DNA of 64,000 bases from Candidatus Omnitrophota bacterium (GCA_028715965.1 JAQUQS010000007.1:17644-81643); one strand, 5' to 3'. Numbered from the stretch's first letter, positions 4,166 through 48,410 are shown. Made by a program: numbers and translations. Notes: generated by a model not told the origin, from the sequence alone.

Positions 4166-5630
4166 CGCGGCCTTCCTTATCGTTACCCGTCACTGTTAAA
4201 GCCCCTATGGCGTGGGCAAGTTCCGCCCGTGAGACAAAAAGACTTTCTCTGGAAGATATCATCCTGCTTCGAGCCTCTGAAAGCTGGCTCTGCGCCTGCA
4301 GCACATCAAGCATACTTTTAAGACCCGACGTGTAGGAATCGTAGGCTAATTCATATGATGTCTTTGAGGTCTCCAGGAAAGCTTTGCTGAAAGAATATTT
4401 TTTCTCTGCCGTCTTCAGGTCGAAATACTTCGTCCAGACCTCCGCGCTGGCGGCAAGTTCGACCTGTCTGAGCTTTTCGCGCTCAAGACCCAGCAAGGCC
4501 TTGGCCTCATTACGCTTGGAATACAGGTAGAACCCGTCAAAAACGTCCCATTCCACCGTCAAGAACGCGTTATAACTGTGGTCCCACTTGGAGTTGAACA
4601 CGCTCGGGTTCTTTTCCGACCCAAAGAACTTGTGCTCTCCGGCCCCTATACTTCCACCCGTACTTAGCGTTGGCCACAGATCGGAATTCGCCGCGGCAAG
4701 GTCCTCTTTTTTCGATTCCAGGCTGGCTTTTGCGGCGATCACCGACGGTCTTTCCTTGAGGGCCCTATCAATAAGGACGGTAACATCCTCCTCGGTCACG
4801 TCAACAAGTATATCACCAGAGGGTTCGTCTATCTCGAACTCGGTATCCGGTGGGACCCCGAGAGCCTGTGTCAATGTAGCCCGAGCGGTCTTTGACAACC
4901 CCCTGGCCTCCTCGAGGGAATAAAGCGAATCCTCGTAAGTTGACTCGGCCTGAAGAACATCCAACCTGGAAACAAGACCCGCTTTTGCCCTCTGGCGCGC
5001 GGCATCAAGAGAAGCCGTGCTATCGGCCAGGTTCGCTTCAGCGGCGACCACAGATGCTTCCGCGCTGTAAAGTCCGTAGTAAGCTTTCGTGGTATCGAGA
5101 AATACATCCTGTATTGCCTGGTTAAAACTGAAATTGGCCTCAAGTAACGCCTGTTTAGCCGATGACACCCTGGCGGCTCTCCCACCCAGGTCCAGCAGGA
5201 GAAGCTGGGCCTGGCCTAAAGCCGTATAGTCCGCCTGGTTAGCGTCCCCGACAGAATTATTTGTCACTTTTTTATTGAACGCCGTTTGGGCGGATACGGA
5301 GACCTGTGGATACCATCTGCTTTCGGCCTGTTTTATCCTCGCGTGGGCGGCTCGCGCACTCTCCCAAGCCTGCCTGGTTGACGGATTGTTCGTGAACGCT
5401 ATGTCCAGAAGAGCTGCAATGTCCAGCCTGTCCCCGCCAGTGAAAACATCCCCTTTGGCCCTTAAAGATCTCCAGACCTCATCTTTTGCCAGTTTTTTCT
5501 CCGCCCACTTGGACGGGGTCCAACTTTGGGACGGGTCTGTTGGCTGGGAAACAGTACTGCAACCGGAACACACTATTACCAGCAGCATAAGACAGTGAAA
5601 AAAGGAGTTCCTTTTATTCATATCTTTCAT
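4155..5630 (-). CDS. TolC-like outer membrane efflux protein (lipoprotein signal)
   Basis: 491 aa. The N-terminus MKDMNKRNSFFHCLMLLVIVCSGCS resembles a lipobox. It has two repeated alpha/beta halves typical of outer membrane factors. It overlaps the adaptor gene by 11 bp. Confidence 0.8.
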   Translation of the reverse strand: MKDMNKRNSFFHCLMLLVIVCSGCSTVSQPTDPSQSWTPSKWAEKKLAKDEVWRSLRAKGDVFTGGDRLDIAALLDIAFTNNPSTRQAWESARAAHARIKQAESRWYPQVSVSAQTAFNKKVTNNSVGDANQADYTALGQAQLLLLDLGGRAARVSSAKQALLEANFSFNQAIQDVFLDTTKAYYGLYSAEASVVAAEANLADSTASLDAARQRAKAGLVSRLDVLQAESTYEDSLYSLEEARGLSKTARATLTQALGVPPDTEFEIDEPSGDILVDVTEEDVTVLIDRALKERPSVIAAKASLESKKEDLAAANSDLWPTLSTGGSIGAGEHKFFGSEKNPSVFNSKWDHSYNAFLTVEWDVFDGFYLYSKRNEAKALLGLEREKLRQVELAASAEVWTKYFDLKTAEKKYSFSKAFLETSKTSYELAYDSYTSGLKSMLDVLQAQSQLSEARSRMISSRESLFVSRAELAHAIGALTVTGNDKEGRDDK

Positions 5631-5835
5631 ATTGGCAATATTATAGCGTGTTAACGTCTCTCCTACAACATATTTAAAGACATCCCGACAGGTAATATCC
5701 TATTACATCTATATGTTTGTCAAAAACCCCTTATTTTGCTAGAATATCTACCGCTATAACAATGTCCGGGGTCATCCTCGGTCGGATGAGTCCTGGTATT
5801 TATATAAGAGTTATAATAAATAGCAAAGTTAGTGT

Positions 5836-5923
5836 GGAGGAGTGGCTGAGTGGTCTAAAGCGGCGGTCTTGAAAACCGTTGTGGGGCAACCCACCGTGGG
5901 TTCGAATCCTACCTCCTCCGCCA
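5836..5923 (+). tRNA. tRNA-Ser (anticodon TGA), long variable arm, CCA encoded
   Basis: GGAGGAGTGGCTGAGTGG...GGTTCGAATCCTACCTCCTCCGCCA. The anticodon loop is CTTGAAA. The variable arm is GTTGTGGGGCAACCCACCGTG. Confidence 0.9.
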
Positions 5924-5934
5924 AATAAACTCAA

Positions 5935-5974
5935 AGCGGGATGATACCATGAATGGGTCATCCCGCTTTTTAGT
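5935..5974 (+). terminator. Rho-independent terminator downstream of tRNA-Ser
   Basis: agcgggatga...tcatcccgct hairpin followed by a T-run. Confidence 0.7.
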
Positions 5975-6036
5975 TTATCTGTTACGCCTTTGGCGTATGA
6001 TATTCGCTCACTCTGCGCGCCCAAAAACACGTTCTT

Positions 6037-6081
6037 GGCGCGCCTCGTTCTCTCGTATCTTGCGGAGAGGCAGGGATCCTG
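6037..6081. repeat. 45-bp perfect direct repeat, copy A (copy B at 6323..6367)
   Basis: ggcgcgcctcgttctctcgtatcttgcggagaggcagggatcctg is present twice, 286 bp apart. Confidence 0.9.
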
Positions 6082-6110
6082 CGCTCCTCGCATACGCTCA
6101 GAGCTGGTTG

Positions 6111-6127
6111 TCCTACCTCCTCCGCCA
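6111..6127 (+). repeat. 17-bp duplicate of the tRNA-Ser 3' end (att-like scar), followed by its own terminator hairpin
   Basis: tcctacctcctccgcca equals tRNA positions 5907..5923. More degenerate copies (cctacctcc / cctatctcc) lie at ~6303, ~6397 and ~6433. Confidence 0.7.
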
Positions 6128-6140
6128 GTTTAACAAAAAA

Positions 6141-6167
6141 GCCCTACTGAAAAGTAGGGTTTTTTTG
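6141..6167 (+). terminator. Rho-independent terminator-like hairpin
   Basis: gccctac tgaaaag tagggt followed by T7. Confidence 0.6.
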
Positions 6168-6322
6168 TTAACCGGCACGGAAGAGGATGAGGCGGCACCT
6201 ATATTCCCATTCACCTGCCGAATCTGACTGAATGCCGGAGGCATGAAGAAATGCCGTAATGGGCGTTAAGATATCCGACGAATAGGAGGATTCTAGCCCG
6301 TTACGGCCTACCTCCCATTTCC

Positions 6323-6367
6323 GGCGCGCCTCGTTCTCTCGTATCTTGCGGAGAGGCAGGGATCCTG
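6323..6367. repeat. 45-bp perfect direct repeat, copy B
   Basis: Identical to 6037..6081. Confidence 0.9.
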
Positions 6368-6456
6368 TAAGCTTAACAAAGAAGCAAAGCACGGTTTCCT
6401 ACCTCTTTAATAGAAGGATCTTAGCCGTGTACGGCCTATCTCCCGCATTCTTATCC

Positions 6457-6825
6457 CTATTTTCCAAATACTTTTTCCAAGGCTTCCAGTAATACTTTTC
6501 CCGCGTATGGCTTAGTAATGTACTCCGCCACCCCGTCGTACTTGGCTATCATTTTGTCGACATCGTCGTCAATACCTGTAAGAAATATCTTCGGGATATT
6601 GCCATAGACACCTCGCCTTCTGAACTCCTCGACGATGTCAAAGCCGGACCGGCCAGGCATATAGATATCTATTATCAGAACGTCGGGACCGAACTCTTCT
6701 ATGTTCTTTTCTATTTCCATAGGCTTGCTTATAGCGCGCACATCATACCCGTTACCTTCAAGGACACGTTTTTCAATGGTAAGGAAATCAACGTTGTCAT
6801 CAAGGATCAGTATGCGTTTGCTCAT
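6457..6825 (-). CDS. Response regulator, receiver domain only (CheY-like)
   Basis: MSKRILILDDN...DIYMPGRSGFD...KPY is a receiver-domain pattern. The start was moved to the internal ATG because it has a GGGGG Shine-Dalgarno. Confidence 0.75.
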   Translation of the reverse strand: MSKRILILDDNVDFLTIEKRVLEGNGYDVRAISKPMEIEKNIEEFGPDVLIIDIYMPGRSGFDIVEEFRRRGVYGNIPKIFLTGIDDDVDKMIAKYDGVAEYITKPYAGKVLLEALEKVFGK

Positions 6826-7280
6826 GACAACACCCCCTTCCCCACATACAGCATGGGGCATTTTCTTTTCAGCGAAAGAACAGCCCTGTCATACAGAACT
6901 GCCTGAAATGCGGTGTCCAAAAAGTGTCGTGTCCGAGGATGCTACAGGCGCGTTCGAGCGGCAGGCGCGTCTAGAACGAACATTAGTAATATTCATGCTC
7001 TCCGCGAATAGCTTCTTCACCGCTTATTAATGACTGGCCTGAGAAGATTGGAGTTATGTCCCTGCGGCCCATTATATCCTTGCGGCAAATATACCACGCA
7101 TAGGGGGTTACGCGCGGACGCGCGTTGTATGGATGGATATGCCTCGAAGATAAACGGCCTTGCCATTATCACAAAAAAATTGATCTTTGATGGCCGTCGG
7201 ATGTGCCGTGTGCGAGTTTGCCGATAGGCATGTCTGAGCAGCAGGCACATCTGCGGACAGATATCAGCTACAAACAGATA

Positions 7281-7571
7281 TCAACGCTTGTTTATTATCG
7301 GCCTGAGAAGATTGATGATAACCCCTACTAGTATGAACGGAAAAAGGAATGGAAGAAGCCACACGAAAAGGGCTACCGCCAGGATCGCGATCGATATGAG
7401 CGCGATCCAGATGACAACGCCCTGATCCAATCTCAGGGCACGAAACATATTCTTTCCCGACCGCGGCTTCCCGCGGCCGGAGGTTTTCCTGTTGCCGGAA
7501 CCATCTATAAGTTCAACTTCTACTTCCCGTCCATCGACGGTGGCTTTTAGTTTTTTCTCTTTATTCTCCAT
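7281..7571 (-). CDS. Small hypothetical membrane protein (96 aa)
   Basis: One C-terminal TM helix. The last 15 codons are duplicated non-codingly at 7036..7050. Confidence 0.4.
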   Translation of the reverse strand: MENKEKKLKATVDGREVEVELIDGSGNRKTSGRGKPRSGKNMFRALRLDQGVVIWIALISIAILAVALFVWLLPFLFPFILVGVIINLLRPIINKR

Positions 7572-7589
7572 AATATATACCCTGCCCGC

Positions 7590-8297
7590 CTAAAAACCGG
7601 CGCCCTGGTACCAGGTTTTTATGTTATCCATGATCTCAAGTATTTTTCCGTATATCAATGTGTAAACATCACCGGTATTAGCCGCGGCGTCCGAAAGGAA
7701 CCCTCGGAGCGATACGCTCTCAAAAAAAGGCGTGAAAATAGCCTCGATCACGACTATATTGGCCACGAATATCACTACAAGCGAGAAGATGAAGCCCGAT
7801 TTCATGAGGTCGGGCTGCTGCAACCGGAGCGCCTCATTGGTAAGCACGAAATGGAACGCCATCGTGAACCCGACAAGGAACAGGAATACCGCGGATACAC
7901 CCGGCCCACTTTTCCCCGCCATATGCATGCCCAGTGATAAAGGGCACAGCATGACCGTATAGATCGGCACGAAATATGGGCTTAACTCTATGAAAAAATT
8001 GGTCTTGGACGTAACTACCCCGCCGCCGGACGGCGTTACGTTGAACGATATGACTCGCCCGCCGCACAACCATGTCGCCAGGGCATGCACCGCTTCATGC
8101 CCCAACACGTAAACATAAACGGGCCGGAAGATAAAGATATGTATCAGTAGATACGCAAGCACTCCGCGTTCAAGTATACGGAACGTTCCGCTTAATACGC
8201 TTATACTGCTTATCGAGGTATAAAAAGCCTCGCCAACGGCGTAGGCCATTGGCAACAGCACTATGCCCGCTAAGGTCCTGAGCACTTTGCTTAACAT
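7590..8297 (-). CDS. Polytopic membrane protein with HExxH motif (putative zinc metalloprotease, M50/site-2-protease-like)
   Basis: YVLGHEAVHAL motif within a TM region. About 6 predicted TM helices. Confidence 0.5.
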   Translation of the reverse strand: MLSKVLRTLAGIVLLPMAYAVGEAFYTSISSISVLSGTFRILERGVLAYLLIHIFIFRPVYVYVLGHEAVHALATWLCGGRVISFNVTPSGGGVVTSKTNFFIELSPYFVPIYTVMLCPLSLGMHMAGKSGPGVSAVFLFLVGFTMAFHFVLTNEALRLQQPDLMKSGFIFSLVVIFVANIVVIEAIFTPFFESVSLRGFLSDAAANTGDVYTLIYGKILEIMDNIKTWYQGAGF

Positions 8298-11581: not shown

Positions 11582-11796
11582 ATATATATTATAAATCCCG
11601 CGAATGAGTATACAAATAGAAATATGGGGACTGGTACTGCCAAAGCTTATGCTCCCGCTGATGTGCCTGTTCGTTCAGGGGGTTTCGCGACACTTCCTCA
11701 GACATTGCGTCTTCGGTCGTCCCCGTTAAAAACGAGGGACTGGTTCAGTCTTGAAAACAGTGACCGGGATACCTTGCAGAACAAAAACGGCATTGA

Positions 11797-12297
11797 TCAG
11801 GGTTTGCGCGCTATTATATCTTTCGAATAGATAACGATACCGTCATCGTTAGAATAGAAATCGTCGATAAGACCGACCTCGCGGAATCCCTGGCCAACAT
11901 AGAACCTGCGTGCCAACAGATATTCTTTGCGTGAAGATGTTTCGACCCTGATTATTGCCCGGGGGACCTCTTTGAACATTTTTTCTTCGGCTTTCGCCAA
12001 TAGCTTCTTTCCTAGTCCCGTCCCCTGGTGCGCCTTATCAACAACAAGCCAGTATATATCCCATCCGAAGTCCGTAAGCGGGGTACGGCCGAATATCAGG
12101 TATCCCACGAGTTTTCCATCTACTTCTTCGCTTATGACCCGGTAAGCGCTTTCCTTGGCGGTCAACATGTCCGAGATGATCTCTCCCAGGACAACTATCT
12201 CTTTTTCCCTGAAGACCCCTGTTTGGTGGGCCATTTTAACCATTTGTTCCGAACATGGTACAGTAGCTATCATATGCGTCTCATTTCCCGGGGACAA
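11797..12297 (-). CDS. GNAT family N-acetyltransferase
   Basis: QGTGLGKKLL acetyl-CoA binding motif. It is the last gene of the KamA operon. Confidence 0.8.
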   Translation of the reverse strand: MSPGNETHMIATVPCSEQMVKMAHQTGVFREKEIVVLGEIISDMLTAKESAYRVISEEVDGKLVGYLIFGRTPLTDFGWDIYWLVVDKAHQGTGLGKKLLAKAEEKMFKEVPRAIIRVETSSRKEYLLARRFYVGQGFREVGLIDDFYSNDDGIVIYSKDIIARKP

Positions 12298-13279
12298 GCC
12301 CCGCTCCTAATATGCCCTCTATAATATCCTCGTACTTGAGCCCTTTTGAATATCCTTGACGCGCGAACCCGCTGTCAGTATTTATATCCGGGTTCGGATT
12401 AACGTCGAGAACATACAGTTTCCCATCTCGTTCCCTGAGGTCTACCCGGAAATATCCCCTGCATCCAAGAGCGTTCGCCGCCTCCCGGCTGACCTCAATG
12501 ACCTTATCCCTCCATTTTCTATCGTCCGGAAGGAGTACTTCCGGCATAAGACGTTTATATTCCGGCGAATCCGCTTTCCATTTGGACGAAAAATTCAGGT
12601 ACTGTCCGCGTCCCTTGGTAGTGCCGTAATCAAGCATCGATACCCCGATAACATCATAGGGGTATTCCCCTGTAAATCCGGCGTTGAACTCTATCCCGGG
12701 TATGAACTCCTCGACCATAAGCCCGGCGGGGAAGCGTTCCAATTTATCCAGGACATAGCTTGCCATCTCTTCATCGTTATAAGCCAGTGACATGCGGTCT
12801 ATGCCTACGCTCGCGTCCTCGGATACCGGTTTGATGAACACCGGAAGATCCCCGGTAAAAGTCCCCAGGTCGCCAAATGTCCTGACGACCACTCCTTCGG
12901 GGACATCTATCCCGTGTTCGGCCAATATCTTTTTGGCACCCCCCTTGTCAAGACACGCCTCAAGCGCGCCAGATCCGTTACCCGTGAACGGTATCTTTTC
13001 CTCCTCCAGCATCTTCACGAACACTATCTCCTGGAAAGTATTATCGGAAAAACCTTCGAAAAGGTTGAAAACGCGATCGGGGGCATATTCCCGTATGTCC
13101 CGGACCAGTTTATATGGATCGCGTGAAAACTCCTTCTGTGTGACATCGAGATAAGATACGGCATATCCCCGCGCCTCAAGGGCTCCTTTAACCGAATTAC
13201 GGCACCGCAGGGCGTCCAGAGTATCTTCTCTGGGCACTTCGTCTATTCCGGCGGATATCATTATTTTTTTTGTTTTCAT
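12281..13279 (-). CDS. D-Ala-D-Ala ligase family ATP-grasp enzyme (paralog 2)
   Basis: Ddl-like motifs: PYTGS-like, KP..GSS.G, E.F.PG.E, RVD and DVNP.PG. An ATG at 13279 has an AAGG Shine-Dalgarno. The alternative is a GTG at 13312 forming a GTGA overlap with the upstream gene. Confidence 0.75.
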   Translation of the reverse strand: MKTKKIMISAGIDEVPREDTLDALRCRNSVKGALEARGYAVSYLDVTQKEFSRDPYKLVRDIREYAPDRVFNLFEGFSDNTFQEIVFVKMLEEEKIPFTGNGSGALEACLDKGGAKKILAEHGIDVPEGVVVRTFGDLGTFTGDLPVFIKPVSEDASVGIDRMSLAYNDEEMASYVLDKLERFPAGLMVEEFIPGIEFNAGFTGEYPYDVIGVSMLDYGTTKGRGQYLNFSSKWKADSPEYKRLMPEVLLPDDRKWRDKVIEVSREAANALGCRGYFRVDLRERDGKLYVLDVNPNPDINTDSGFARQGYSKGLKYEDIIEGILGAGLVPGK

Positions 13280-13308
13280 GGTAACCTTACGACATCCAGG
13301 GGCAGGGG

Positions 13309-14337
13309 TCACACGACGATACCCGAACGTTTCACCTCGGTCATGCGCGCGCCATAACGGGCAAGGGCTTCTTCCACTATCCTTTTTATGAGCTCTCCGT
13401 AACTCCTGCCGGCCATACGGATCATTATCACAAGATCGCTGTAATGTGGGGATAGCCCCGGCAGCGGATTAACATCTATTATCCTTGGGATACCCAAGGC
13501 ATCCACCCTGAGATCTATACGCGCTATATCCCTAAGAGATAACGCCTTGAAAGCCGCGGTCGCGTACTCCGCTATCTTCCTCCTCACTTCAGCGGCCACC
13601 GCGTCCTCCCCTTCATAGAGTATCTTTTTCTTCCAATCCCGCTTTTGTTCTATGGAATATATGAATCTGTCCCGGTTTTCCCGGGGAGATATCTTCATCA
13701 TGCCCAGAAGCTCCGGCACGTCATTCCCGGAGACCGCGGCTGTTATCTCACTTCCCGGCATATACTCCTCGACAAGCACAGGTTGTCCATATCGCCCAAG
13801 TATCCTTGAGGCTTTTTCCACCAGTTCCACGGGCCCCGAGGCGATAGAATCGTCAAAAATGCCCCGGGAAGAGCCTTCCCATCTGGGCTTGATGACCCAG
13901 TACCCCTCCTTCTCGATAGCCTGGCTTATCCGGGATATGTCCTCCCGGTCCCCGGCGCTGAATGCGCGAGGCACAGGTACGCCAGCCTGGTGAAGGACCA
14001 CATTTGTCAGGTATTTATCAAGCGTTATCCCAAGTGCGATAGGGTCCGATCCCGTGTACGGGATATCCAGGCTTTCCAGGATACACGGCACCTGGGATTC
14101 CCTGGACCTTGTGTGCCCGATACCTTCGGCGATATTGAAGACCATATCCGGCCTCTTCCTAATAAGCTCTGAGGCCAGGTCCTCCTTCTGGTCGAACAGG
14201 GTGACCTCAAAACCAAGAGCCTCTATCTCATCTTTTATCGCCAGGATAGTCTCTATCTCATCGTACTCTTCATGGAGATCGTCCGTTCTTGTCTTGTCCT
14301 TTAAGTTATAGACTATCCCGATAGAACGTATATTCAT
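13309..14337 (-). CDS. D-Ala-D-Ala ligase family ATP-grasp enzyme (paralog 1)
   Basis: PYTGSDP, KPRWEGSSRGI, EEYMPGSEIT, RIDLRVD and DVNPLPG match the Ddl fold. Confidence 0.8.
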   Translation of the reverse strand: MNIRSIGIVYNLKDKTRTDDLHEEYDEIETILAIKDEIEALGFEVTLFDQKEDLASELIRKRPDMVFNIAEGIGHTRSRESQVPCILESLDIPYTGSDPIALGITLDKYLTNVVLHQAGVPVPRAFSAGDREDISRISQAIEKEGYWVIKPRWEGSSRGIFDDSIASGPVELVEKASRILGRYGQPVLVEEYMPGSEITAAVSGNDVPELLGMMKISPRENRDRFIYSIEQKRDWKKKILYEGEDAVAAEVRRKIAEYATAAFKALSLRDIARIDLRVDALGIPRIIDVNPLPGLSPHYSDLVIMIRMAGRSYGELIKRIVEEALARYGARMTEVKRSGIVV

Positions 14338-14352
14338 CTCTTCCCTGTTCCT

Positions 14353-15489
14353 TTATGCCGGGTTGTGGTATTCGAACACCTCTTTGGCGTAATTGCGCAG
14401 AAAAAGGCTTTTGTCCGTTACCGAGACTATATAATTCGGCGCTATAGGTATCTTCCCCTTACCATCGACCCCATCAACAACGAACGTCGGAAGGCACATC
14501 CCGCTTGTATGCCCTCTCATACTATCCATTATTTCCATACCCTTGAACACGGATGTCCTGAAATGCGCGGCACCTACCACGGGATCACACTGGAACAGGT
14601 AATATGGCCGTACCCGTATACTCTGGAGTTTATGGCAAAGCTCCGTCATCACACCCGGATCATCATTGATACCCTTTAAAAGGACGGATTGGTTGCTCAT
14701 GGGCACACCCGTCATCTGTATCCGCCGGCACGCCTCGGTGGCCTCCCCTGTAACTTCACGCGGATGATTGAACTGCACGTTGATCCATAGTTTTGGATAT
14801 TTCGAGAATACAGCACAAAGCTCAGAGTCTATCCTGTTAGGGAGCACTACCGGGGCCCTCGTCCCGATGCGAACTACCTCTATGGTGCTTATGGCTGAAA
14901 CGGCCGAAAGTATATGTTCGATCTTTTCCGTAGATAAGGTCAGTGGATCCCCGCCTGAAACTATTATTTCCCTTATCTGTTCGTTCTCACGCACATAATT
15001 CAGCGCCTCGTCTATATCCTCAAGTGACGGTTCGGCCACGGCGCATCTCCATAACCTTTTGCGGGTACAATGGCGGCAGTACATGAAACATCTACCCGTC
15101 ACGAGCAAAAGGGCCCTGTCGGGATACCGGTGTATAAGGTACCTCGTCGCTTCCGTCTTAACTTCTCCGAGCGGGTCCATCTTGTCATGTTCCGAGTATT
15201 TGATCTCTTCGGGCGATGGCACACACTGCATATATATAGGATCTTTAGTGTCTTCTATGTTCTTTATCAATGAAAGGTAATACTTCGGTATCCTTAAATG
15301 GAAGAGTTTCGCTACTTTTCGCAGGGTTTCTTTCCTGCCCTTAAGTAATGGGATGTTCCTGGAAAGGTCATCAATATTCTTTATCGAGTTCGCATCTTCA
15401 TCCTGCCACGTACTTGTTGCGGCCTCGCATAACGTACCGGGAGGCTCGTCCATCTCCGCGGCCAGACACAAACCTGTTTCTTTTTCCAT
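14353..15489 (-). CDS. Lysine 2,3-aminomutase family radical SAM enzyme (KamA/AblA/EpmB-like)
   Basis: CFMYCRHCTRKR is the CxxxCxxC motif. YLIHRYPDRALLLVTGRC and the C-terminal PLP-binding region match KamA. Confidence 0.85.
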   Translation of the reverse strand: MEKETGLCLAAEMDEPPGTLCEAATSTWQDEDANSIKNIDDLSRNIPLLKGRKETLRKVAKLFHLRIPKYYLSLIKNIEDTKDPIYMQCVPSPEEIKYSEHDKMDPLGEVKTEATRYLIHRYPDRALLLVTGRCFMYCRHCTRKRLWRCAVAEPSLEDIDEALNYVRENEQIREIIVSGGDPLTLSTEKIEHILSAVSAISTIEVVRIGTRAPVVLPNRIDSELCAVFSKYPKLWINVQFNHPREVTGEATEACRRIQMTGVPMSNQSVLLKGINDDPGVMTELCHKLQSIRVRPYYLFQCDPVVGAAHFRTSVFKGMEIMDSMRGHTSGMCLPTFVVDGVDGKGKIPIAPNYIVSVTDKSLFLRNYAKEVFEYHNPA

Positions 15490-15844
15490 AGACTCCTCCT
15501 AAAAAAAGACCCCTCAGATCACGAAGATATGAAGGGGTTCACTTGCGCAAATTGTTATTTTGCCTATGTCCTTTGCTTAGACACGTTTTATTTATGTATT
15601 CAACTGAAGAATATACAACAAAACGGCTTATTGTCAATTGAAATCACGTTTTTTATTGCAGGGGCCGTGTCTTCCTTTACGTCTATGCCATGCCTCCCCG
15701 CGCCGGTCATGGGCCGGACGCGCACTGTAATAATATGGGCCGTAGGGTACAAGTACAGATATTTACCCGGCCATAAGCATCCTAAGTCCCCCGACAAACA
15801 TGGCCACTGGCTCCCGGGTAATCTCCCTTCGGGCAAAATTTTTA

Positions 15845-16014
15845 AAGTGGTGAGCCGCCTCGACGCGGAGGTCTCGGCACCCGCTCGCACATTTCGTGTT
15901 CGCTTGCCTTGGTCGCTCAGGGCTACAATGCTCCTACTCGTCTCATTGTCCACGCCCTTCTCGACACTTCCTCGGCCATTACGGCCTCGGTCGGACTCGG
16001 GGCTTTACATCTAA
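15845..16014 (+). repeat. Repeat family copy 1 (~170 bp), 5' end matches the tRNA-Lys 3' end
   Basis: aagtggtgagccgcctcgacgcggaggtctcgg...ctaaagcttattcc is nearly identical to 23754..23934 and 23997..24178. Confidence 0.9.
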
Positions 16015-16083
16015 AGCTTATTCCCACTCGTCCTCGCCTAAAACCTATAGATCCCGCCCGGCTAACACAGTGCCGGCGGATAT

Positions 16084-19000
16084 TTATTCACCGCATATAT
16101 ACTCTTCCCCCTTGAACGTATAGCCGGTAAATGTTGACCGGTTCTTAAGGATGGCGTTATATTTGGAGAGGATCTCGCTCTCACTGACGCTTCCGGATGG
16201 AGCATTTCTATCCTCTTTCCCGGCAAGATCAAGCGTACCGTTCTCGAATATGGCCACGATCCCGCCTTCAGTATCGTATTCGTAAATACTCAACAGATCC
16301 TCCGGATCCCTGTCGGTAGAGGAATACGCGTACACGAAGTGTAATGCCCCATCGTCCTCACCCTCATAATACTCGAATTCAAGCGCGCGTTCCCCTTTTG
16401 AATTGGCTTCCGCATACATCGTTGAAACAAGTATCTTCCCTGCCATATCATACTCGTAAACCGCTACAAGCTCATTCGAAGCACATGAAGTCGCGGAATA
16501 CGAAGAAACCCTGCTCGGCTGTATGGAATCCGCGTAATATTCGTACTTGAACGCGATCTCCCCCTTAGCGTTCGTTGCCTCAAGATGGGCTTCATCCGCC
16601 CTGGGCGCGCCCTGTGTATTCCAGGCCTGGTCGATATCCTCGTCGATGTAATGGTAATAGACCATCCCGCAAACATCTGCTTTCGGCATGGTCCGTGATT
16701 TCATGCGCTTTTCATTATCGGACGCCTCCGGGTTATAATATTCTGTGCTGCTTCCGTTCCAATCCCCGTTGTATCTTAAAAACCCCGAGAACACGGGATT
16801 ATGCGGATCCGTTACGTCGATATTTTCCCATTCCCATTGCCCGTAACGTTGATATTCATCGCCTATGACACTGTAGACATGCGCTATCCCGTCATAATAT
16901 TCCATTAACTCCCTGCCATATCCACGAAACTCCCAGTTCTCGTCAAGATAGTACTTTATAGAAGTATCCGGATCTTCTATATACGCTTTCATGAACCAGG
17001 ATTCCGGGTAATATACTATCTCCCATGATGTTTCTTCCGGCAGAAGCTGGCCTTCCTGATCGAACGTTTCGGTCACCACAGGGTTTGATAGTACGGGTAT
17101 GGAAGTATCCAGCTTATACTCAGCGGTATGATATCCTTTTCTTACGCTGACTATGTCCGTACCCTCATGGTATTCATACGTATACGCTTTCACTCCATAT
17201 TTATCGCCCGCTTTCAGTATGGATACGTCTATTCTACCCTCTTCATCGTAGTGAAAATAAACATAAGCCGGATCATCAAGATCTGGCCCCCTGACCGATT
17301 CTATCTCTCCTGTATCCGGATAATACGTGTACACTGTCCCGTAAAACCAGTCTTGCAGGGCCTGGTAATCCATCGCGTCAAGCGCGTTACCCTTATCATC
17401 CCAGAAAAGAAGCCCGTCATATCCGTGGTCGGCCAGTGTATCAAGTTTATTCGTCACATACGTCGGATCTATTTCCCCGCCTATAACAGGTTTCCCTTTC
17501 AGGTAATTGGGAGAGTAAAAATACTGCATCTTATCGTTCTTGTAACCGAACAGGTTGAGGCTCGCTTTGTCATAATCGGGGCTCTCCGTATTATCACCCT
17601 GCCAGTACTTGTAACTGTCATAATAATGGAACTGATAAAGATCAAGCACGCTCAGGTCCCCGTCGGCGCAAGCGTTATCGTAACTGACCCAGTACTTCAT
17701 CATCTCGGATTTTGTCAGACTGCCTACCGTGACCAGCGCTTCTGGATCTTTCTGGTGTATCATCGTCACGAATTTCCTCACGAATACCTGCATCTCTTCC
17801 ATCGTTACGCCTGTTATGTCCCCCAAATGCCCTTCACATGAGATCTCCGGCTCATTGATGACATCCCACGCGTATATGGCGTCATAATTGGCCAGTTTCA
17901 TGACCTCGTCGAAAAACCAGTCGAAATGAGCCAGCAAGACAGCCGTCGCGTTCTCGTCCTTTATAAGATCGACGTGCTCGTGGTCGGAAACACTTTCCAC
18001 GCCATCGGCCATCCTGTAATCGAATAATGTCGGGATAAGTTTTATGTTAAGTTCTTTCGCCGTATTCAAAAGCGTCTCCATGTCCTGTATGACGAAATCG
18101 GTGAACCCCGTAAAAGACCCGTTAGCGTCGAACATCATGCCGGCCCTCATATCGGCGAACAGGAACAACCTTACATATCCGTCTTTCCACTTTTCAAGGC
18201 CCGCCCTCAGTTCCTCATATCCCGTAAGGTTCTCCCATCCGCTTCGTCCCCTCGAATACCCGCTATGCCAGCCATCGACCGACCTTACTCCGATCCCTTC
18301 CCCGTAACGTATCCATGGCAGGTTACCCATGCCTATGAATTCCTTATCTCCGGCCGCGGCTACACGCTTTTCCAAAAGAGCGCCGTCTATCCTGTATGTC
18401 CTGGTTTCCAGCAAAGTATCCGTATCGCCGTCGTACTCAAAAACGGTATAGGACCCGTCCGGGAAAGTTTTTTTAATAAGACGTCCGTGCGCCTCATACG
18501 GTTCCGATAAAGGTAATGATATCAATAGCCCCTTTACGTCATCCTGGGTAAACCCGTTTTCCGGCAAAGCGTTAGCGTTGATATACGCGATAAGCTCTCT
18601 TATGCCCAATGTCCCGGGATCCACACCGATAAGGAAATCCTTCAGATCGCTGGGCTCATCGGCATAGTAAATAAGATCACTTAAAAACTGCCCAGCCTCT
18701 TTATCCGCGTAAAAAGCTTCGTCAGCATACTCATAAGTTATCTCCGTAGCCTCCTCCGCCTTAGTGAACTCACCTGCCTTTGTAGCGCACTCGAACCTGG
18801 TGTGTACTCTTCCCGAATCATAATACGTAAAAGGATATTCGGGGCCGGCGTGATCTGGCATGCCATAGGGGAAATGCGGAATGATCTCGTAAACGCTGAA
18901 GTTATCGAGATATACCTCATATAGCGTACCGGTAGTGATCTCTTCACCTGTCTCGAGCATGTTGGTCGCGGCTTCCCAGTCGATAGCGGTCTCTATATCG

Positions 19001-21885
19001 AGATCGCCGTCATACACATAGATCAGTCTCCTGGTCACCTGCGTACCGCATATTACGTCTTTAATAAAGACCGTTTCACCGTTCCCGCCAAAGACAAATG
19101 ATCCCCATGGACTTCCGTCCGGATCGCTTTCATAATAGCGCATGGTGAGTGAAGGTGAGCCGGAAGTCCCGAACACTTTCCTGTATACGGCGTTTTTTTG
19201 ATCATCTATGACCTTGACCGGCAAGAGCACACCCTCGATATATTCCCTGACGATACCCATTTCATCTCCCCCCAGATATTGCTTTTCCCTTACCAGGGTT
19301 CCCGCGGCATCGTAGAAATATTCATACGCCTTGACCAGTCCATCGACAACAGGCTGCTCCGGATCGCTATGATCTATGCTACTGTACAGTTTTTTCCGTT
19401 TGACGAGGTCCGAGCCGGGATAATACTCGTAAACATACCCCATAGCCCCTTCACTGTCGGCGAATATCCTCGCCGAAACATCAACGCGGCCCTGTCCCGA
19501 ACCAAGCCAGTCCTCGTTCATGTAATGATAGTATATGTTCCTGTTATCATCGGATCCCGTTAACGTCTTGGACCGCATCATTCCGGTATCGTTCCAATAT
19601 GTTGTTGTTGCTTTCAAGTACTTGAACTCGGGATTAGCGGGGTCGATCACATTGTCAGTCGGGCTGAAAAGTTCCAGTAGAGACACGTCACCATCCAGGA
19701 AATTCACGATATAAGCGTGCTGGTCACCCGGAGAGATGACCAGGTCTTTCGGGAGATCGCCAACGGGTATGTCCTGCACAAGTTTCGTATTAGTGGACAG
19801 GTCTATTACGGACACGCTATCACCGACGCCATTCGTCACATAAGCGTATTTCCCGTCCGCCGTGATCTCGATGCCTTCGGGCCCGTCTCCCACGGGAATA
19901 TCATTTGTCAGTTTTGTGCGGCTGGCAATATCTATCACCGATACCGTACCTGAATAGTTGTTCACGACGTATAAATAAGCCCCGTCCGGGGTGATCGCGC
20001 TATGACAGGGCCGGTCCCCCACGATAATATCTTCCGCGAGCTTAGTATTGGTGCTGAGATCGATCACCGACACACTGTCGCTACCTCCATTCGTCACATA
20101 GGCATATTCACCGGACGGATCGATCCTGATATGATATGGGGACGATCCTACTTCTATCGTTTTTATCTTTTGTTTCGCCTGAAGATCGACTACCGACACG
20201 GATCCGGCCAACCAATCCACCGTATAGCAATATCTGTCGTCTCCCGTCAACTCCATGGCCCAGGGGTACCTGCCCACCTGGATCGTTTCCGCCAGGACCT
20301 CGTCGTTCTCAAGATCTATTATTCCTATATAATCGTCCCTGCAACTCGTATAGTACGCATACCGCCCGTCACTGCTGATCTTTATGTCCCCGGGGTCCCG
20401 GCCGACATCAAGATCCTCTCCTACCTTTAGTTTTGTCGCCATATCGATCTTGGATATAGTGTTGGCCCCGTAATTCGTAACATACGCGAACCGTGAATCC
20501 GGCGTTATCTCAACGTAACAAGGTAAGTTCCCCATGCTGACATCCATATCGAGGTTCACATTAGTCAATATCTGCCCGCCGTGATAGGCATACGATGTTC
20601 GCGAAACGATCCTATCGGTAGCCCCGTCGTATTCGACCTCATACGCGACGGCCCCGTCGGCATCCGCCTCTTGCGCGACATATTTGTCCATCCTGCCGGA
20701 GGCCTCATTGATATAATGGTAATAGATGTTCCCGTTCTCATCGGGAGCCGAGAATGTTCTACTCTCGATAAACCCCGTATCGGAATAATATGTTACGCTT
20801 TCACCGTCTTTTTCCGTCTTTTCCAGCAATGGCTCATGGGTCGCGCCGGAAACATTCGCGTATTTATAGACCGTATATCCCGTTGGCGCATATGCCCGGG
20901 AGTATCCCTCCTTGATCAAGGCCCCGTTCTGCGAATAATACATATCCTTAATGAGTGCTCCATTTGCATCATATAATTCCACGATCCGGGGAACATCCGA
21001 CCCTTCCCAGAAGGATATGACCTTTTCGACAGAACCGTCCGCGAGAAAGGTCCTGATCACCCTTCCCTGCTGATGGCCATTGTAAGGTTCATCCGAATAT
21101 TCGTAACCTAAATGCCCTTTTGAGTTCGCTTTATCATAATATTTGCCGCTTATTCTTCCCGAAGGGTAATACTCTACGCGATAATTCCTTTCTCCGTTAT
21201 CATCGTAATATTCGGTATCTTGTTTTTTCCCCGTATTTCCGTCATATGTGAACTTGATCCGCTGTATACCTTTGAAATTGAAATATATCTTACTTGTCTT
21301 GAGTCCCTTCTCGTTAAAAGACTCTTTTTTGATCATCTGTCCTGAATGCGCGCTATAATATGTCCTGTCTTTCACGGTACCATTATCATGGTATCTTTCG
21401 CTATAAGATGCCTTGCCCGTCGAGGTGTTATAATACGTGACCTTCCGAGGCTTGCCGTTGTCATTAAATTCTATCCGTTTACACTTTTTCCCAAAATGAT
21501 CATAGCTATCCATCATGGAATAAAACCCGGTCACAAGATCATAATAAAACTCACTTGAAAGTCTTCCATTATTACCGTATTCCACTACGCGTATGCTCTT
21601 TCCATTTTCAGCGCGATAGACTATCCTGGTTCCACCTTTGCCTCTGATCCCGTATCTGGGAGACCACACGATCCTTCCCGCGTCATTATAATAATTGACC
21701 GACCGGGTTTTTGGCCCTAACTCCTGATACAAATATGTATAATAAAACCCCTGGAATAGACCGTACCAACCTGAATTGTACCTTTTAAATAGGTCAATAC
21801 TATCAGCCGATCCAAGACTGGTTATCAGCATTACGCTGACTACCATTAAAGCTATTAAGAGATTATGTTTTGGATATTTTCTCAT
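16084..21885 (-). CDS. Giant secreted/surface protein (1933 aa) with YD/RHS-like repeats, YVTN beta-propeller repeats and a GH5-like (clan GH-A) domain
   Basis: N-terminal signal/TM. Six or more ~40-aa repeats of YAYVTN...SVSVIDL. A segment containing WDVINEPE (the NEP catalytic motif of GH5). Many YY.D.G / Y.YD repeats. Confidence 0.8.
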   Translation of the reverse strand: MRKYPKHNLLIALMVVSVMLITSLGSADSIDLFKRYNSGWYGLFQGFYYTYLYQELGPKTRSVNYYNDAGRIVWSPRYGIRGKGGTRIVYRAENGKSIRVVEYGNNGRLSSEFYYDLVTGFYSMMDSYDHFGKKCKRIEFNDNGKPRKVTYYNTSTGKASYSERYHDNGTVKDRTYYSAHSGQMIKKESFNEKGLKTSKIYFNFKGIQRIKFTYDGNTGKKQDTEYYDDNGERNYRVEYYPSGRISGKYYDKANSKGHLGYEYSDEPYNGHQQGRVIRTFLADGSVEKVISFWEGSDVPRIVELYDANGALIKDMYYSQNGALIKEGYSRAYAPTGYTVYKYANVSGATHEPLLEKTEKDGESVTYYSDTGFIESRTFSAPDENGNIYYHYINEASGRMDKYVAQEADADGAVAYEVEYDGATDRIVSRTSYAYHGGQILTNVNLDMDVSMGNLPCYVEITPDSRFAYVTNYGANTISKIDMATKLKVGEDLDVGRDPGDIKISSDGRYAYYTSCRDDYIGIIDLENDEVLAETIQVGRYPWAMELTGDDRYCYTVDWLAGSVSVVDLQAKQKIKTIEVGSSPYHIRIDPSGEYAYVTNGGSDSVSVIDLSTNTKLAEDIIVGDRPCHSAITPDGAYLYVVNNYSGTVSVIDIASRTKLTNDIPVGDGPEGIEITADGKYAYVTNGVGDSVSVIDLSTNTKLVQDIPVGDLPKDLVISPGDQHAYIVNFLDGDVSLLELFSPTDNVIDPANPEFKYLKATTTYWNDTGMMRSKTLTGSDDNRNIYYHYMNEDWLGSGQGRVDVSARIFADSEGAMGYVYEYYPGSDLVKRKKLYSSIDHSDPEQPVVDGLVKAYEYFYDAAGTLVREKQYLGGDEMGIVREYIEGVLLPVKVIDDQKNAVYRKVFGTSGSPSLTMRYYESDPDGSPWGSFVFGGNGETVFIKDVICGTQVTRRLIYVYDGDLDIETAIDWEAATNMLETGEEITTGTLYEVYLDNFSVYEIIPHFPYGMPDHAGPEYPFTYYDSGRVHTRFECATKAGEFTKAEEATEITYEYADEAFYADKEAGQFLSDLIYYADEPSDLKDFLIGVDPGTLGIRELIAYINANALPENGFTQDDVKGLLISLPLSEPYEAHGRLIKKTFPDGSYTVFEYDGDTDTLLETRTYRIDGALLEKRVAAAGDKEFIGMGNLPWIRYGEGIGVRSVDGWHSGYSRGRSGWENLTGYEELRAGLEKWKDGYVRLFLFADMRAGMMFDANGSFTGFTDFVIQDMETLLNTAKELNIKLIPTLFDYRMADGVESVSDHEHVDLIKDENATAVLLAHFDWFFDEVMKLANYDAIYAWDVINEPEISCEGHLGDITGVTMEEMQVFVRKFVTMIHQKDPEALVTVGSLTKSEMMKYWVSYDNACADGDLSVLDLYQFHYYDSYKYWQGDNTESPDYDKASLNLFGYKNDKMQYFYSPNYLKGKPVIGGEIDPTYVTNKLDTLADHGYDGLLFWDDKGNALDAMDYQALQDWFYGTVYTYYPDTGEIESVRGPDLDDPAYVYFHYDEEGRIDVSILKAGDKYGVKAYTYEYHEGTDIVSVRKGYHTAEYKLDTSIPVLSNPVVTETFDQEGQLLPEETSWEIVYYPESWFMKAYIEDPDTSIKYYLDENWEFRGYGRELMEYYDGIAHVYSVIGDEYQRYGQWEWENIDVTDPHNPVFSGFLRYNGDWNGSSTEYYNPEASDNEKRMKSRTMPKADVCGMVYYHYIDEDIDQAWNTQGAPRADEAHLEATNAKGEIAFKYEYYADSIQPSRVSSYSATSCASNELVAVYEYDMAGKILVSTMYAEANSKGERALEFEYYEGEDDGALHFVYAYSSTDRDPEDLLSIYEYDTEGGIVAIFENGTLDLAGKEDRNAPSGSVSESEILSKYNAILKNRSTFTGYTFKGEEYICGE

Positions 21886-22184: not shown

Positions 22185-22565
22185 TCACTCCTTGCCATAA
22201 TATTTTTTAATTCTCTCTCTGTCCTCATTTCCCTTGTCACCTTTGAAATATACCTCAATAAACTCAATTTTATCTTCCTCTTTGAAGTAGGCGTAAATAA
22301 TTCTAATCCCGCTTTTTGCTCCTCTTCCCTTCAATGCCTTACAAGCAAACCTCTTCACCTTGTATATTTCAGGATATTCAATGCCGAGATTGGAGATCCT
22401 CTCTATACCATTTACTTCCTTACCCTTCTTATGTTTCAGTTTCAATGCAACCTTAATAAATGTCTCAATATCATCGTCGAGAGTTCTAAACCTCTTTTTT
22501 AGAGCTTTTAGATCTTTTGCGTACTCAGCAAGATGAACTATTTTATTAAAAATGCTATTCGGCAT
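22185..22565 (-). CDS. RelE/ParE-superfamily toxin (type II TA)
   Basis: 126 aa with the C-terminal IRIIYAYFKEEDKIEFIEVYFKGDK pattern. It overlaps the upstream HTH gene by 11 bp. Confidence 0.55.
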   Translation of the reverse strand: MPNSIFNKIVHLAEYAKDLKALKKRFRTLDDDIETFIKVALKLKHKKGKEVNGIERISNLGIEYPEIYKVKRFACKALKGRGAKSGIRIIYAYFKEEDKIEFIEVYFKGDKGNEDRERIKKYYGKE

Positions 22566-23340
22566 ATTCCCTCACCGAGTAAGGTGCCTTTCTATAGAAC
22601 ACGGATTCATACTCTATAATTTCACCATCCTCTGTAGATTCCCACGGAACATCACCATGTGAGTAGTCACTGATCTGCGTAGCATTCATATCAGATAACC
22701 TGCTATTCAATACATCGTCTATTGTTTCCTTTTCACGCGCGCTCAAAAGAGAAAGATCCGGCTTTCTCAAAGGTAAATACTTTTTCTGTAAATGCTGAAA
22801 ATATTTGTTCTGTACTTTTACCACCTCTTCATTCTCGATCATTTCTTCTACGATTTTTATAAATTCTTTTGGCGTCGGTCCATGATGATTTTTTATATAA
22901 GTAGCACCCATGAGCTGCTCCTCATATTTCTCGTAGAAATTAAAATCCATGAAATATAAAAGCTTGTACAAGACTGTTTCTCCAATATTGGGCTTAGATC
23001 CAACTTTTTCAAGGATATATATCAACACCTCTTTGAATTTTTTCAGATTTTTCTGGGGGACACTGATCCTTATTTCTTCTTTATGTTCTGCCTTCTTCAA
23101 ACTCTTCTCAAAAACAACTTCGATATCCTTTTTGATGTTCAGTAATACATCTGTAGGTATATTGAACACTTTAGCTACTTTAGTAATTTCCTCAGCACTA
23201 ATCTTTCTGTCTCCTGTCTCTATCTGAGAAACGGCCACTCTATTCACTCCAAGTTTTTTAGCTAACTCTTCCTGGGACAACCCCATTCTTTCTCTTATCT
23301 TTTTAATTTTTATCCCAAGATCTTTATAAAATCTATCCAT
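22555..23340 (-). CDS. HTH XRE-family regulator with C-terminal Panacea/DUF4065-like domain (antitoxin)
   Basis: N-terminal LSQEELAKKLGVNRVAVSQIETG helix-turn-helix. The C-terminal ~150 aa resembles phage-associated Panacea domains. Confidence 0.6.
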   Translation of the reverse strand: MDRFYKDLGIKIKKIRERMGLSQEELAKKLGVNRVAVSQIETGDRKISAEEITKVAKVFNIPTDVLLNIKKDIEVVFEKSLKKAEHKEEIRISVPQKNLKKFKEVLIYILEKVGSKPNIGETVLYKLLYFMDFNFYEKYEEQLMGATYIKNHHGPTPKEFIKIVEEMIENEEVVKVQNKYFQHLQKKYLPLRKPDLSLLSAREKETIDDVLNSRLSDMNATQISDYSHGDVPWESTEDGEIIEYESVFYRKAPYSVREYAE

Positions 23341-23634: not shown

Positions 23635-23753
23635 GATTACTGATCAATATTCGTTAGTCGTTAGTCGACCGCATTCACGGCTACTTGCGGATCTCGACTT
23701 ACAAATGCTCTGTTAAATAAAAAACCAGGGGAGTGTACCCTGGTTTTTTATTT

Positions 23754-23996
23754 AACTGGTGAGCCGCCCTCGACGCGGAGGTCTCGGCACCCGCTCGCAC
23801 ATTTCGTGTTCGCTTGCCTTGGTCGCTCAGGGCTACAATGCTCCTACTCGTCTCATTGTCCACGCCCTTCTCGACACTTCCTCGGCCATTACGGCCTCGG
23901 TCGGACTCGGGGCTTTACATCTAAAGCTTATTCCCCTTCGCCTTCGTTATCTTACCATTAAAAAAGGAGACATCCTCTCGGAATGTCTCCTTTTTT
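23754..23996 (+). repeat. Repeat family copy 2 (243 bp unit including 3' terminator hairpin)
   Basis: It starts aactggtgagccgccc and ends with the hairpin aaaaaaggagacatcctctcggaatgtctcctttttt. Confidence 0.9.
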
Positions 23997-24240
23997 AAAG
24001 TGGTGAGCCGGCCTCGACGCGGAGGTCTCGGCGCCCGCTCGCACATTTTGTGTTCGCTTGCCTTGGTCGCTCAGGGCTACAATGCTCCTACTCGTCTCAT
24101 TGTCCACGCCCTTCTCGACACTTCCTCGGCCATTACGGCCTCGGTCGGACTCGGGGCTTTACATCTAAAGCTTATTCCCCTTCGCCTTCGTTATCTTACC
24201 ATTAAAAAAGGAGACATCCTCTCGGAATGTCTCCTTTTTT
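23997..24240 (+). repeat. Repeat family copy 3 (244 bp), tandem to copy 2
   Basis: Near-identical to copy 2 with a few substitutions. A fourth partial start aaagtggtgag follows at 24241. Confidence 0.9.
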
Positions 24241-42420: not shown

Positions 42421-42429
42421 TGGCTTCCT

Positions 42430-44438: not shown

Positions 44439-44759
44439 ATGATGGAAAATGAGAAAAAGCAGGGCCCTACAGGGTTATCTGACGAGGCCAAAGCCAGGCT
44501 GGACGAGTTTATTAAGGCCTATGACCCCATTAACAATAAGGCTTTACGGCAAAATGGGACTGGAGCATTACGGATCCGAGACAGGCGGCTGCCAATCCCC
44601 GGAACGGTCATATCTAAGGTATATAAAGGTACTACTATTGATGTTAAGGTGCTGGATAAGGGATTTGAGTATGACGGTAAGGCTTACCGTTCATTAAGTG
44701 CCATTGCCGGAGCGGTAACTGATCAACATTGGAATGGTTACCTATTTTTCGGTCTATAA
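44439..44759 (+). CDS. Small protein upstream of serine recombinase (DUF2924-like)
   Basis: 106 aa ending ...AVTDQHWNGYLFFGL. Position and size are typical of recombinase-associated small proteins. The family name is from memory. Confidence 0.45.
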   Translation: MMENEKKQGPTGLSDEAKARLDEFIKAYDPINNKALRQNGTGALRIRDRRLPIPGTVISKVYKGTTIDVKVLDKGFEYDGKAYRSLSAIAGAVTDQHWNGYLFFGL

Positions 44760-44773
44760 ACGAGGAGAGTTCA

Positions 44774-48401: not shown

Positions 48402-48410
48402 CTTATTCCT

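Follow-up and report, generated by a model that had tools for sequence, protein, structure and literature searches.

A conserved lysine aminomutase, ATP-grasp ligase and acetyltransferase cassette of Omnitrophota and Synergistota as a candidate pathway for acetylated beta-lysine amides

We analyzed a 64,000-nucleotide stretch of DNA from a Candidatus Omnitrophota bacterium (GCA_028715965.1, JAQUQS010000007.1:17644-81643; hereafter the window), in which four tightly packed minus-strand genes at positions 11797-15489 encode a KamA-like lysine 2,3-aminomutase, two ATP-grasp ligases of the D-alanine–D-alanine ligase (Ddl) fold, here called AG1 and AG2, and a GNAT-family acetyltransferase. The aminomutase retains the catalytic and lysine-binding residues of lysine 2,3-aminomutase, both ligases retain the catalytic residues of Ddl and have lost most of those that bind its substrate, and the gene set is conserved in Omnitrophota and Synergistota, where some of its members are fused into single proteins. 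We lean towards a reading in which the operon makes a small, cytoplasmic, N-acetylated amide or peptide (a di- or tri-amide) that contains beta-lysine.

Conservation of the gene neighborhood had been set beforehand as a test by an earlier reading of the window made without database searches (the sequence-only reading), and the set around AG1 does recur in species-representative genomes. An alignment of AG1 homologues was used to fetch 80 loci from such genomes in the Genome Taxonomy Database (GTDB), among which AG2 is present in 75, KamA in 64, the GNAT protein in 63 and an HDAC-family deacetylase in four, a recurrence far above chance. About 42 loci are of the Omnitrophota type (nine of them labeled 'uncultured Planctomycetia' and three only 'bacterium'), with the gene order KamA-AG1-AG2-GNAT, one further locus belongs to Ca. 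Auribacter, and the 36 Synergistota loci have the order AG1-AG2-GNAT-KamA, at times followed by the deacetylase. Gene order is constant within a phylum and different between phyla, with KamA on either side of the other three genes, and AG1-AG2-GNAT without adjacent KamA was found in Elusimicrobia, Thermodesulfobacteriota and one further genome. Because the triad persists without KamA and the side taken by KamA varies, we read AG1-AG2-GNAT as the stable core of the cassette, to which KamA has been joined on either side. AG2 is missing from the three closest relatives of the window, and AG1 of the window has a 100% identical counterpart in a Candidatus Omnitrophica metagenome-assembled genome. 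Sequence identities follow taxonomy, and AG1 is also carried by the cultured Aminobacterium mobile and Aminobacterium sp. MB27-C1. A divergently oriented major facilitator superfamily (MFS) transporter gene adjoins the cassette in 11 Synergistota loci and follows it in Aminobacterium-type loci. As a separate observation, genes for an encapsulin (Linocin_M18), an EncFtn-like cargo and a baeRF-family protein precede the cassette in Aminobacterium-type loci (5344-7748 in the Aminobacterium locus L002) and in other Synergistota.

Gene fusions tie the aminomutase and the ligases together more directly. KamA and AG1 form a single open reading frame (ORF) of ~730 amino acids in nine of the 80 genomes, and a profile search of 1.84 billion representative proteins gave 1580 matches at E <= 1e-30; 149 of the best 150 were classified by architecture. 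The classified matches include 88 proteins with AG1 alone, 23 tandem proteins in which both halves are AG1-like, 14 AG1::AG2 and two AG2::AG1 fusions, four KamA::AG1 fusions and one AG1::KamA fusion. Fusions among KamA, AG1 and AG2 argue that the three enzymes share an intermediate or form a complex.

The aminomutase gene (14353-15489, minus strand; 378 amino acids with Radical_SAM and LAM_C domains) scores 289 bits with the KamA subfamily model TIGR00238, above the cut-off of 199, and its product aligns with the lysine 2,3-aminomutase of Clostridium subterminale (PDB 2A5H) at an E value of 2e-104. A CxxxCxxC motif lies at residues 134-141, and D302, D339 and K346 align with D293 and D330, the aspartates that bind the lysine epsilon-amine in the clostridial enzyme, and with K337, its pyridoxal 5'-phosphate (PLP) lysine. 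Every one of the 64 KamA proteins linked to a cassette has the cysteine motif, both lysine-binding aspartates and the PLP lysine; in glutamate 2,3-aminomutase the two aspartate positions hold Lys and Asn. With the aspartate pair and the PLP lysine in place, the cassette aminomutase looks lysine-specific, in line with its initial assignment; a glutamate or arginine 2,3-aminomutase was considered and rejected, because both aspartates are kept and the lysine model scores highest. The closest NCBIfam model is TIGR03820 (AblA), which the protein matches at 431.7 bits against a cut-off of 525.4, with positions 362-417 of the model unmatched and the protein shorter. KamA of the window ends ~40 amino acids short of the clostridial enzyme, and the lower AblA score is due in part to these missing C-terminal residues. 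KamA of the Aminobacterium cassette passes the AblA equivalog model (611.3 bits against 525). Adjacent genes for the beta-lysine 5,6-aminomutase and the 3,5-diaminohexanoate dehydrogenase of a lysine fermentation cluster (kamA-kamDE-kdd-kce-kal) are absent from the flanks in the window and from the recurrent neighbor clusters; the neighbors of kamA in the window encode the ligases, the GNAT protein, archease, RtcB, SerRS and a giant repeat protein.

The two ligases appear to form distinct families within the Ddl fold. AG1 (13309-14337, minus strand; 342 amino acids) and AG2 (12281-13279, minus strand; 332 amino acids from the ATG at 13279) match the Pfam domain Dala_Dala_lig_C at E values of 2e-25 and 2e-17, and their scores with the Ddl models TIGR01205 and NF002378 fall well short of the cut-offs (246 and 243 bits), at 112 and 138 bits for AG1 and 90 and 107 bits for AG2; their Aminobacterium homologues likewise remain below these cut-offs. 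AlphaFold2 models (mean predicted local distance difference test scores of 90 for AG1 and 86 for AG2) found Ddl structures as their best Foldseek matches, with template modeling scores of 0.77-0.85, 19-24% identity (22-24% for AG1 alone) and a probability of 1.00. Both proteins are 20-27% identical to Escherichia coli DdlB and are as distant from each other as either is from that enzyme (28% identity in the window and a mean of 25% across the families).

Residues were mapped onto E. coli DdlB, with its sequence verified against PDB 2DLN. The equivalents of K97, K144, E180, E187, R255, D257, E270 (as Asp) and N272 are invariant or nearly so, E180 being the sole ATP/Mg position that varies, in two of 17 AG2 sequences. 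Among the D-Ala-binding residues E15, H63, S150, Y216, S281 and L282, only E15 (or Asp) and S281 are retained: Y216 is replaced by Trp and H63 by Glu in both families, L282 by Asp in AG1 and by Gly in AG2, and S150 by Ala in AG2. Further acidic residues are found in AG2, which gains Asp at the positions of G276 and H280, and in AG1, which has an EEYDE cluster at the position of E15. AG1 and AG2 are therefore probably active ligases but not Ddl, as the sequence-only reading had suspected, and we infer from the replaced residues that their acidic pockets would suit an amine-rich, cationic substrate such as beta-lysine. A canonical Ddl gene was not found in the 64-kb window or in the ~17-kb loci, a scope that is smaller than whole genomes. 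JGI and NCBI records give many AG1 and AG2 members the name 'D-alanine--D-alanine ligase', and none of the NCBIfam models is specific to AG1, AG2 or the cassette GNAT protein.

The acetyltransferase (11797-12273, minus strand; 158 amino acids from the ATG at 12273, or 145-166 depending on the start) is a RimI-like GNAT protein with an acetyl-CoA motif (Pfam Acetyltransf_1, E value 1e-11). Its best NCBIfam match is rimI (43 bits, under the cut-off of 86), its best PDB match is 2R7H (E value 3e-16), an uncharacterized structural-genomics protein described as a 'putative D-alanine N-acetyltransferase', and the AblB model TIGR03827 gave no match at E <= 1e-3. The ablB gene is ~870 bp long and encodes a protein of ~290 amino acids (PMC11337218). 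A search for homologues in cultured hosts returned 44 matches, all of them from uncultured organisms. The HDAC-family deacetylase, which is encoded in four of the 80 loci and in the Aminobacterium locus, is closest to acetylpolyamine amidohydrolases (E value 2e-70 to PDB 6PHR) and has an extra N-terminal region of ~260 amino acids without a Pfam match. The substrates of acetylpolyamine amidohydrolases are small molecules with acetylated aliphatic amines.

The sequence-only reading had assigned all four genes to their families and had described them as tightly linked, and both statements hold: the Pfam and NCBIfam matches agree with the assignments, the ORFs lie where they had been placed, and the gap of 15 bp between kamA and AG1 is exact. 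It had also described overlaps of 4 and 17 bp between the subsequent genes. The arithmetic is right, but the overlaps exist only for the longest ORFs, with a GTG start for AG2 (13312; 343 amino acids) and a TTG start for the GNAT gene (12297; 166 amino acids), whereas with ATG starts the genes lie 29 and 7 bp apart. An independent gene call, made on an identical contig, places the starts of AG2 and the GNAT gene at the ATG codons 13279 and 12273, the N-termini of homologues match these ATG starts, and NCBI places the GNAT start still later (ATG 12234; 145 amino acids). Because gene calls and homologue N-termini favor the ATG codons, the true intergenic distances are probably 15, 29 and 7 bp, with 46 bp as the alternative for the last gap, and the arrangement is operon-like either way. 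The 3' side of the GNAT gene has a gap of 215 nt followed by the genes archease-RtcB-SerRS, a flank that is conserved among close relatives only. A weak terminator-like hairpin at 11738-11750 (minus strand), 47 nt past the GNAT stop codon, was found by a pattern scan and may, with low confidence, mark the end of the operon.

Upstream of kamA, a putative sigma-70-type promoter at 15610-15637 (minus strand; TTGACA, a 16-nt spacer and TATATT, with 11 of 12 consensus matches) precedes a ribosome-binding site (RBS), AGGAGG, read from the sequence at 15495-15500 (minus strand), 5 nt ahead of the ATG of kamA. Identical -35 and -10 hexamers, again separated by 16 nt, occur upstream of kamA in seven loci, including L006, L007, L008, L010, L011 and L013. 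The conservation of this promoter and internal gaps that are all <=46 bp support a single transcription unit for the four genes. Between promoter and RBS, at 15501-15537 (minus strand), the leader is predicted to fold into a terminator-like hairpin followed by seven U residues. The stem CCC(C)TCTCA / TGAGAGGG(G), then a U-run, is found upstream of kamA in ~15 Omnitrophota loci, and a strict version of the pattern has seven sites in the 1.19 Mb searched, all seven upstream of kamA. Since the hairpin sits inside the leader, between promoter and RBS, in the window, in L011 (5778-5817) and in L013 (6739-6779), it is a candidate attenuator, and its distribution suggests one that is specific to this family. 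In other genomes the hairpin lies directly 3' of a gene for a small secreted protein and may simply terminate that gene. A known riboswitch was considered and rejected, as an Rfam search of the leader at E <= 1 gave no match and the z-score of the whole-leader fold is only -1.3; a shared leader peptide or aptamer, sought by eye in the window, L011 and L013, did not emerge consistently. The small secreted protein (114-194 amino acids), which has a '...YNYIFEEE...' motif and ends in an acidic tail, is encoded directly upstream of kamA in 11 Omnitrophota loci (L015, L016, L018, L019, L021, L022, L024, L025, L030, L039 and L050), a twelfth member lies apart from kamA in L017, and the protein may be a mere syntenic neighbor.

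The pathway that we propose would begin with KamA, which would use radical S-adenosylmethionine chemistry and PLP to convert L-lysine to (3S)-beta-lysine. AG1 would then join beta-lysine to a partner through an ATP-dependent amide bond, and AG2 would add a second such bond, so that the closest relatives without AG2 would stop at one. The GNAT protein would use acetyl-CoA to acetylate a remaining free amine, probably the epsilon-amine of the beta-lysyl residue, and, where present, the acetylpolyamine-amidohydrolase-like enzyme would remove the acetyl group again. That the enzymes share beta-lysine as an intermediate, which partners it is joined to, in what order the steps follow and which amine is acetylated are our interpretation of the gene set. 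By analogy with N-epsilon-acetyl-beta-lysine and N-acetylglutaminylglutamine amide (NAGGN), a role of the product as a compatible solute is plausible; a polyamine-like cation is another candidate, and the pairing of the GNAT protein with an acetylpolyamine-amidohydrolase-like deacetylase fits a cation whose charge is tuned by acetylation. It is conceivable, and we offer this more tentatively, that the cassette defines a new class of metabolites, acetylated beta-lysine oligo-amides ('peptide polyamines' of the beta-lysyl-beta-lysine type, or a peptide compatible solute), which would be lineage-wide in Omnitrophota and Synergistota and would be made by an AG1-AG2 heteromer fed directly by the aminomutase and gated by the leader attenuator.

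Several observations weigh against such a pathway. KamA of the window is C-terminally truncated and scores under the AblA cut-off, and the partner substrates of the ligases cannot be read from the sequence. The triad occurs without an adjacent KamA in about 13-14 of the 80 loci (L037 among them) and in L004 and L087, which came from separate look-ups, so that beta-lysine may not be required as a substrate in every lineage, or these genomes may have a KamA gene at another site. At least five Omnitrophota loci (L016, L019, L022, L030 and L050) lack the GNAT gene and have instead a gene for a PIG-L protein between AG1 and AG2; this protein of ~435 amino acids (e.g., L019, 9013-10317) carries a signal peptide and a PIG-L/LmbE de-N-acetylase domain, and its C-terminal half is unassigned. 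The presence of this protein in place of the GNAT protein hints at an envelope-related role. Many hosts, finally, come from fresh groundwater and lakes, which is a poor fit to an osmolyte. A gene for a patatin-like phospholipase is conserved downstream of the PIG-L variant of the cassette.

The acetyltransferase and the translation-related flank raise the question of whether a protein could be the acceptor, with the ligases placing beta-lysine or a short tail on it and the GNAT protein acetylating the same target, as in the beta-lysylation of EF-P by EpmA/EpmB or the tailing of ribosomal protein S6 by RimK. RimI is the best NCBIfam match of the GNAT protein, archease, RtcB and SerRS in the window and typA in relatives are translation and RNA neighbors, HDAC-family partners can be protein deacetylases, and the KamA relative EpmB feeds a protein modification, with the EpmB model TIGR03821 matching KamA of the window at 248 bits. 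That score is nevertheless below the cut-off of 369, neither the operon nor its flanks encode EpmA or another LysRS paralogue, and AG1 and AG2 are of the small-molecule Ddl fold rather than of the RimK or TTL type. We consider a protein acceptor unlikely also in view of a deacetylase that is nearest to the small-molecule acetylpolyamine amidohydrolases, of flanking genes that vary between lineages and of 80 neighborhoods in which no conserved candidate target gene was found. An envelope acceptor is, in our estimate, just as improbable. Here beta-lysine would be attached to a peptidoglycan stem or cross-bridge or to an amino-sugar polymer, and acetylation and deacetylation would control the acceptor amine. 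The nearest fold family, Ddl, serves peptidoglycan precursor synthesis, the signal-peptide PIG-L protein of the loci without a GNAT gene belongs to the GlcNAc de-N-acetylase family, and a GT87 glycosyltransferase gene adjoins the triad in the Elusimicrobia locus. The PIG-L variant is a minority, however, and its protein is predicted to be exported while ATP-grasp enzymes are cytoplasmic; mur, fem and lipid-carrier genes were not found in the neighborhoods examined, and the acetylpolyamine-amidohydrolase-like partner and the divergent MFS transporter of the Synergistota better fit a soluble compound.

If the product is soluble, it could still be an antibiotic-like beta-lysine metabolite comparable to streptothricin or the tuberactinomycins, with the GNAT protein for self-resistance and the MFS protein as exporter. 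Beta-lysine is a building block of ribosome-binding antibiotics, streptothricin acetyltransferases inactivate their substrate by acetylating its beta-lysine (Sat3 is a weak match of the GNAT protein at 24 bits), and the transporter stands beside the cassette in the 11 Synergistota loci noted above. The small size of the cassette, which has no further tailoring or scaffold genes, its position among housekeeping genes and a gene order that is conserved across whole phyla rather than patchy, with identities that track taxonomy, make this proposal a rather remote one. The least probable of all, and one that we disfavor strongly, is the plain synthesis of N-epsilon-acetyl-beta-lysine with two ordinary Ddl genes in between by chance. 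An aminomutase with an acetyltransferase is the known abl logic (PMC11337218), and AG2 is publicly annotated as 'D-alanine--D-alanine ligase', but the Ddl scores under the cut-offs, the low identity to DdlB, the replaced D-Ala residues and the fusions of AG1 and AG2 to KamA and to each other are at odds with ordinary Ddl enzymes. The sequence-only reading had itself described the operon as an ablA/ablB pair into which two ligases were inserted. That description did not survive, because the GNAT protein is not of the AblB type, being small and RimI-like; the triad also exists without KamA, and AG1-AG2-GNAT rather than the presumed pair is the core. 

Among known systems, AblA/AblB resembles the cassette in that an AblA/KamA-type aminomutase and an acetyl-CoA-dependent GNAT protein are encoded in one unit, with a Synergistota KamA that passes the AblA model; it differs in that the two ligases of the cassette are integral, conserved and sometimes fused, its GNAT protein is of another, smaller type and KamA of the window is shortened. 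AG1 and AG2 share the fold, the ATP/Mg residues and the catalytic Arg with Ddl and VanA, but their hidden Markov model scores are about half of the cut-offs, and they occur with each other, with the GNAT gene and usually with KamA instead of in a mur/ftsQ context. NAGGN is an acetylated dipeptide osmolyte made by Ngg, a bifunctional acetyltransferase and peptide-bond-forming enzyme (PMC8070244). The likeness is one of logic, in that an acetyltransferase and an ATP-dependent peptide bond yield a small N-acetylated peptide, whereas NAGGN synthesis uses the single bifunctional Ngg, an asparagine-synthase-type amidotransferase (AsnO) and alpha-amino acids, without an aminomutase. In EpmB/EpmA the aminomutase is likewise a short KamA-family enzyme, which lacks the C-terminal extension of the clostridial one and supplies beta-lysine to a dedicated ligase, but EpmA is a LysRS paralogue, its acceptor is a protein and it is not encoded near the cassette. 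In pyrrolysine biosynthesis (PylB/PylC/PylD) a radical rearrangement of lysine is followed by amide formation through a Ddl-related ATP-grasp ligase; PylB lies outside the KamA family, there is one ligase, and a dehydrogenase takes the place of the GNAT protein. The leading sequence and fold matches of AG1 and AG2 did not include PylC. The acetylation and deacetylation of polyamines by SpeG-type GNAT proteins and acetylpolyamine amidohydrolases resembles the small GNAT protein and the related deacetylase found together in some genomes, except that the acetylated amine would here belong to a beta-lysine amide and the deacetylase is encoded in a minority of loci. A negamycin preprint was rejected as a precedent, since KamA is involved there without an ATP-grasp enzyme. 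The sequence-only reading had not recognized a characterized pathway, and none was found: full-text literature searches returned no paper on the cassette, and an earlier in-silico mention may exist, for example in the amidoligase survey of Iyer et al. (2009, Mol Biosyst). In kind, the cassette would be a small-peptide pathway built on ATP-grasp ligases and a beta-amino acid.

Several features of the surrounding window were recorded alongside the operon. A repeat of ~190-244 nt occurs in three near-identical minus-strand copies (15837-16080, 23747-23990 and 23991-24234), two of them in tandem and each followed by a strong hairpin, and the third just upstream of the kamA promoter. Its last ~22 nt equal the 3' end of the tRNA-Lys(UUU) gene (48327-48402), CCA included, and 36-nt hairpin modules inside the repeat show compensatory stem changes, with one module found again at 11684-11719, between the GNAT and archease genes. 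The repeat has no Rfam match and a fold z-score of only -1.5; in metagenomes an exact 25-mer gave no match, and a 16-base pattern gave 120 matches, mostly chance, only one of which (L103) extends to 36 nt. It could be an att-type repeat belonging to elements that target tRNA-Lys, or else a small RNA whose end resembles a tRNA. A low-GC island (~24300-48300; 35-40% against ~51%), which looks like a defense island, separates the repeats from tRNA-Lys. It encodes an N6/N4 DNA methylase (28775-30037), a PD-(D/E)XK and RNase-H-like protein (32164-33660), an AAA_15/OLD-like ATPase (33657-35513), a DUF2130 protein (35510-36790), the type I restriction-modification genes hsdM/S/R (38142-44184), a serine recombinase (44729-46075, plus strand) and an AbiV-HEPN protein (46433-47953), and an HTH and SocA/Panacea antitoxin-like gene (22555-23340) lies just outside it, beyond the tandem repeats. 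A protein of 1933 amino acids (16084-21885), with a YVTN/lactonase-type beta-propeller and internal repeats, may belong to an inserted segment, because a copy of the 244-nt repeat lies on either side of it. Part of the 3' end of tRNA-Ser(UGA) (5836-5923) is duplicated ~200 nt downstream (5907-5935 and 6111-6139), and a perfect 45-nt direct repeat follows this tRNA gene (6037-6081 and 6323-6367, spacing 286 nt); together they could be a second att-like scar. A 6S RNA gene (56170-56325; 62 bits, above the Rfam gathering score) lies between the gene for an MgsA-like AAA ATPase and pheT and confirms that the window is bacterial.

For genome annotation, the cassette bears on how Ddl is counted. The orthology group K01921 is present in 176 of 176 Omnitrophota genomes according to a preprint, a count that could include AG1/AG2 paralogues, and K01921/Ddl counts used as evidence for an intact peptidoglycan pathway may register these paralogues instead. 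A confirmed product would be a new beta-amino-acid metabolite, and with its ligases the Ddl branch of the ATP-grasp superfamily would gain two new substrate specificities. The question is directly testable, since the two cultured Aminobacterium strains carry AG1. Omnitrophota are almost entirely uncultured, and Synergistota are common in digesters and oil reservoirs; a conserved pathway of the kind proposed here would, if true, provide a first physiological handle on these two poorly understood anaerobic phyla.

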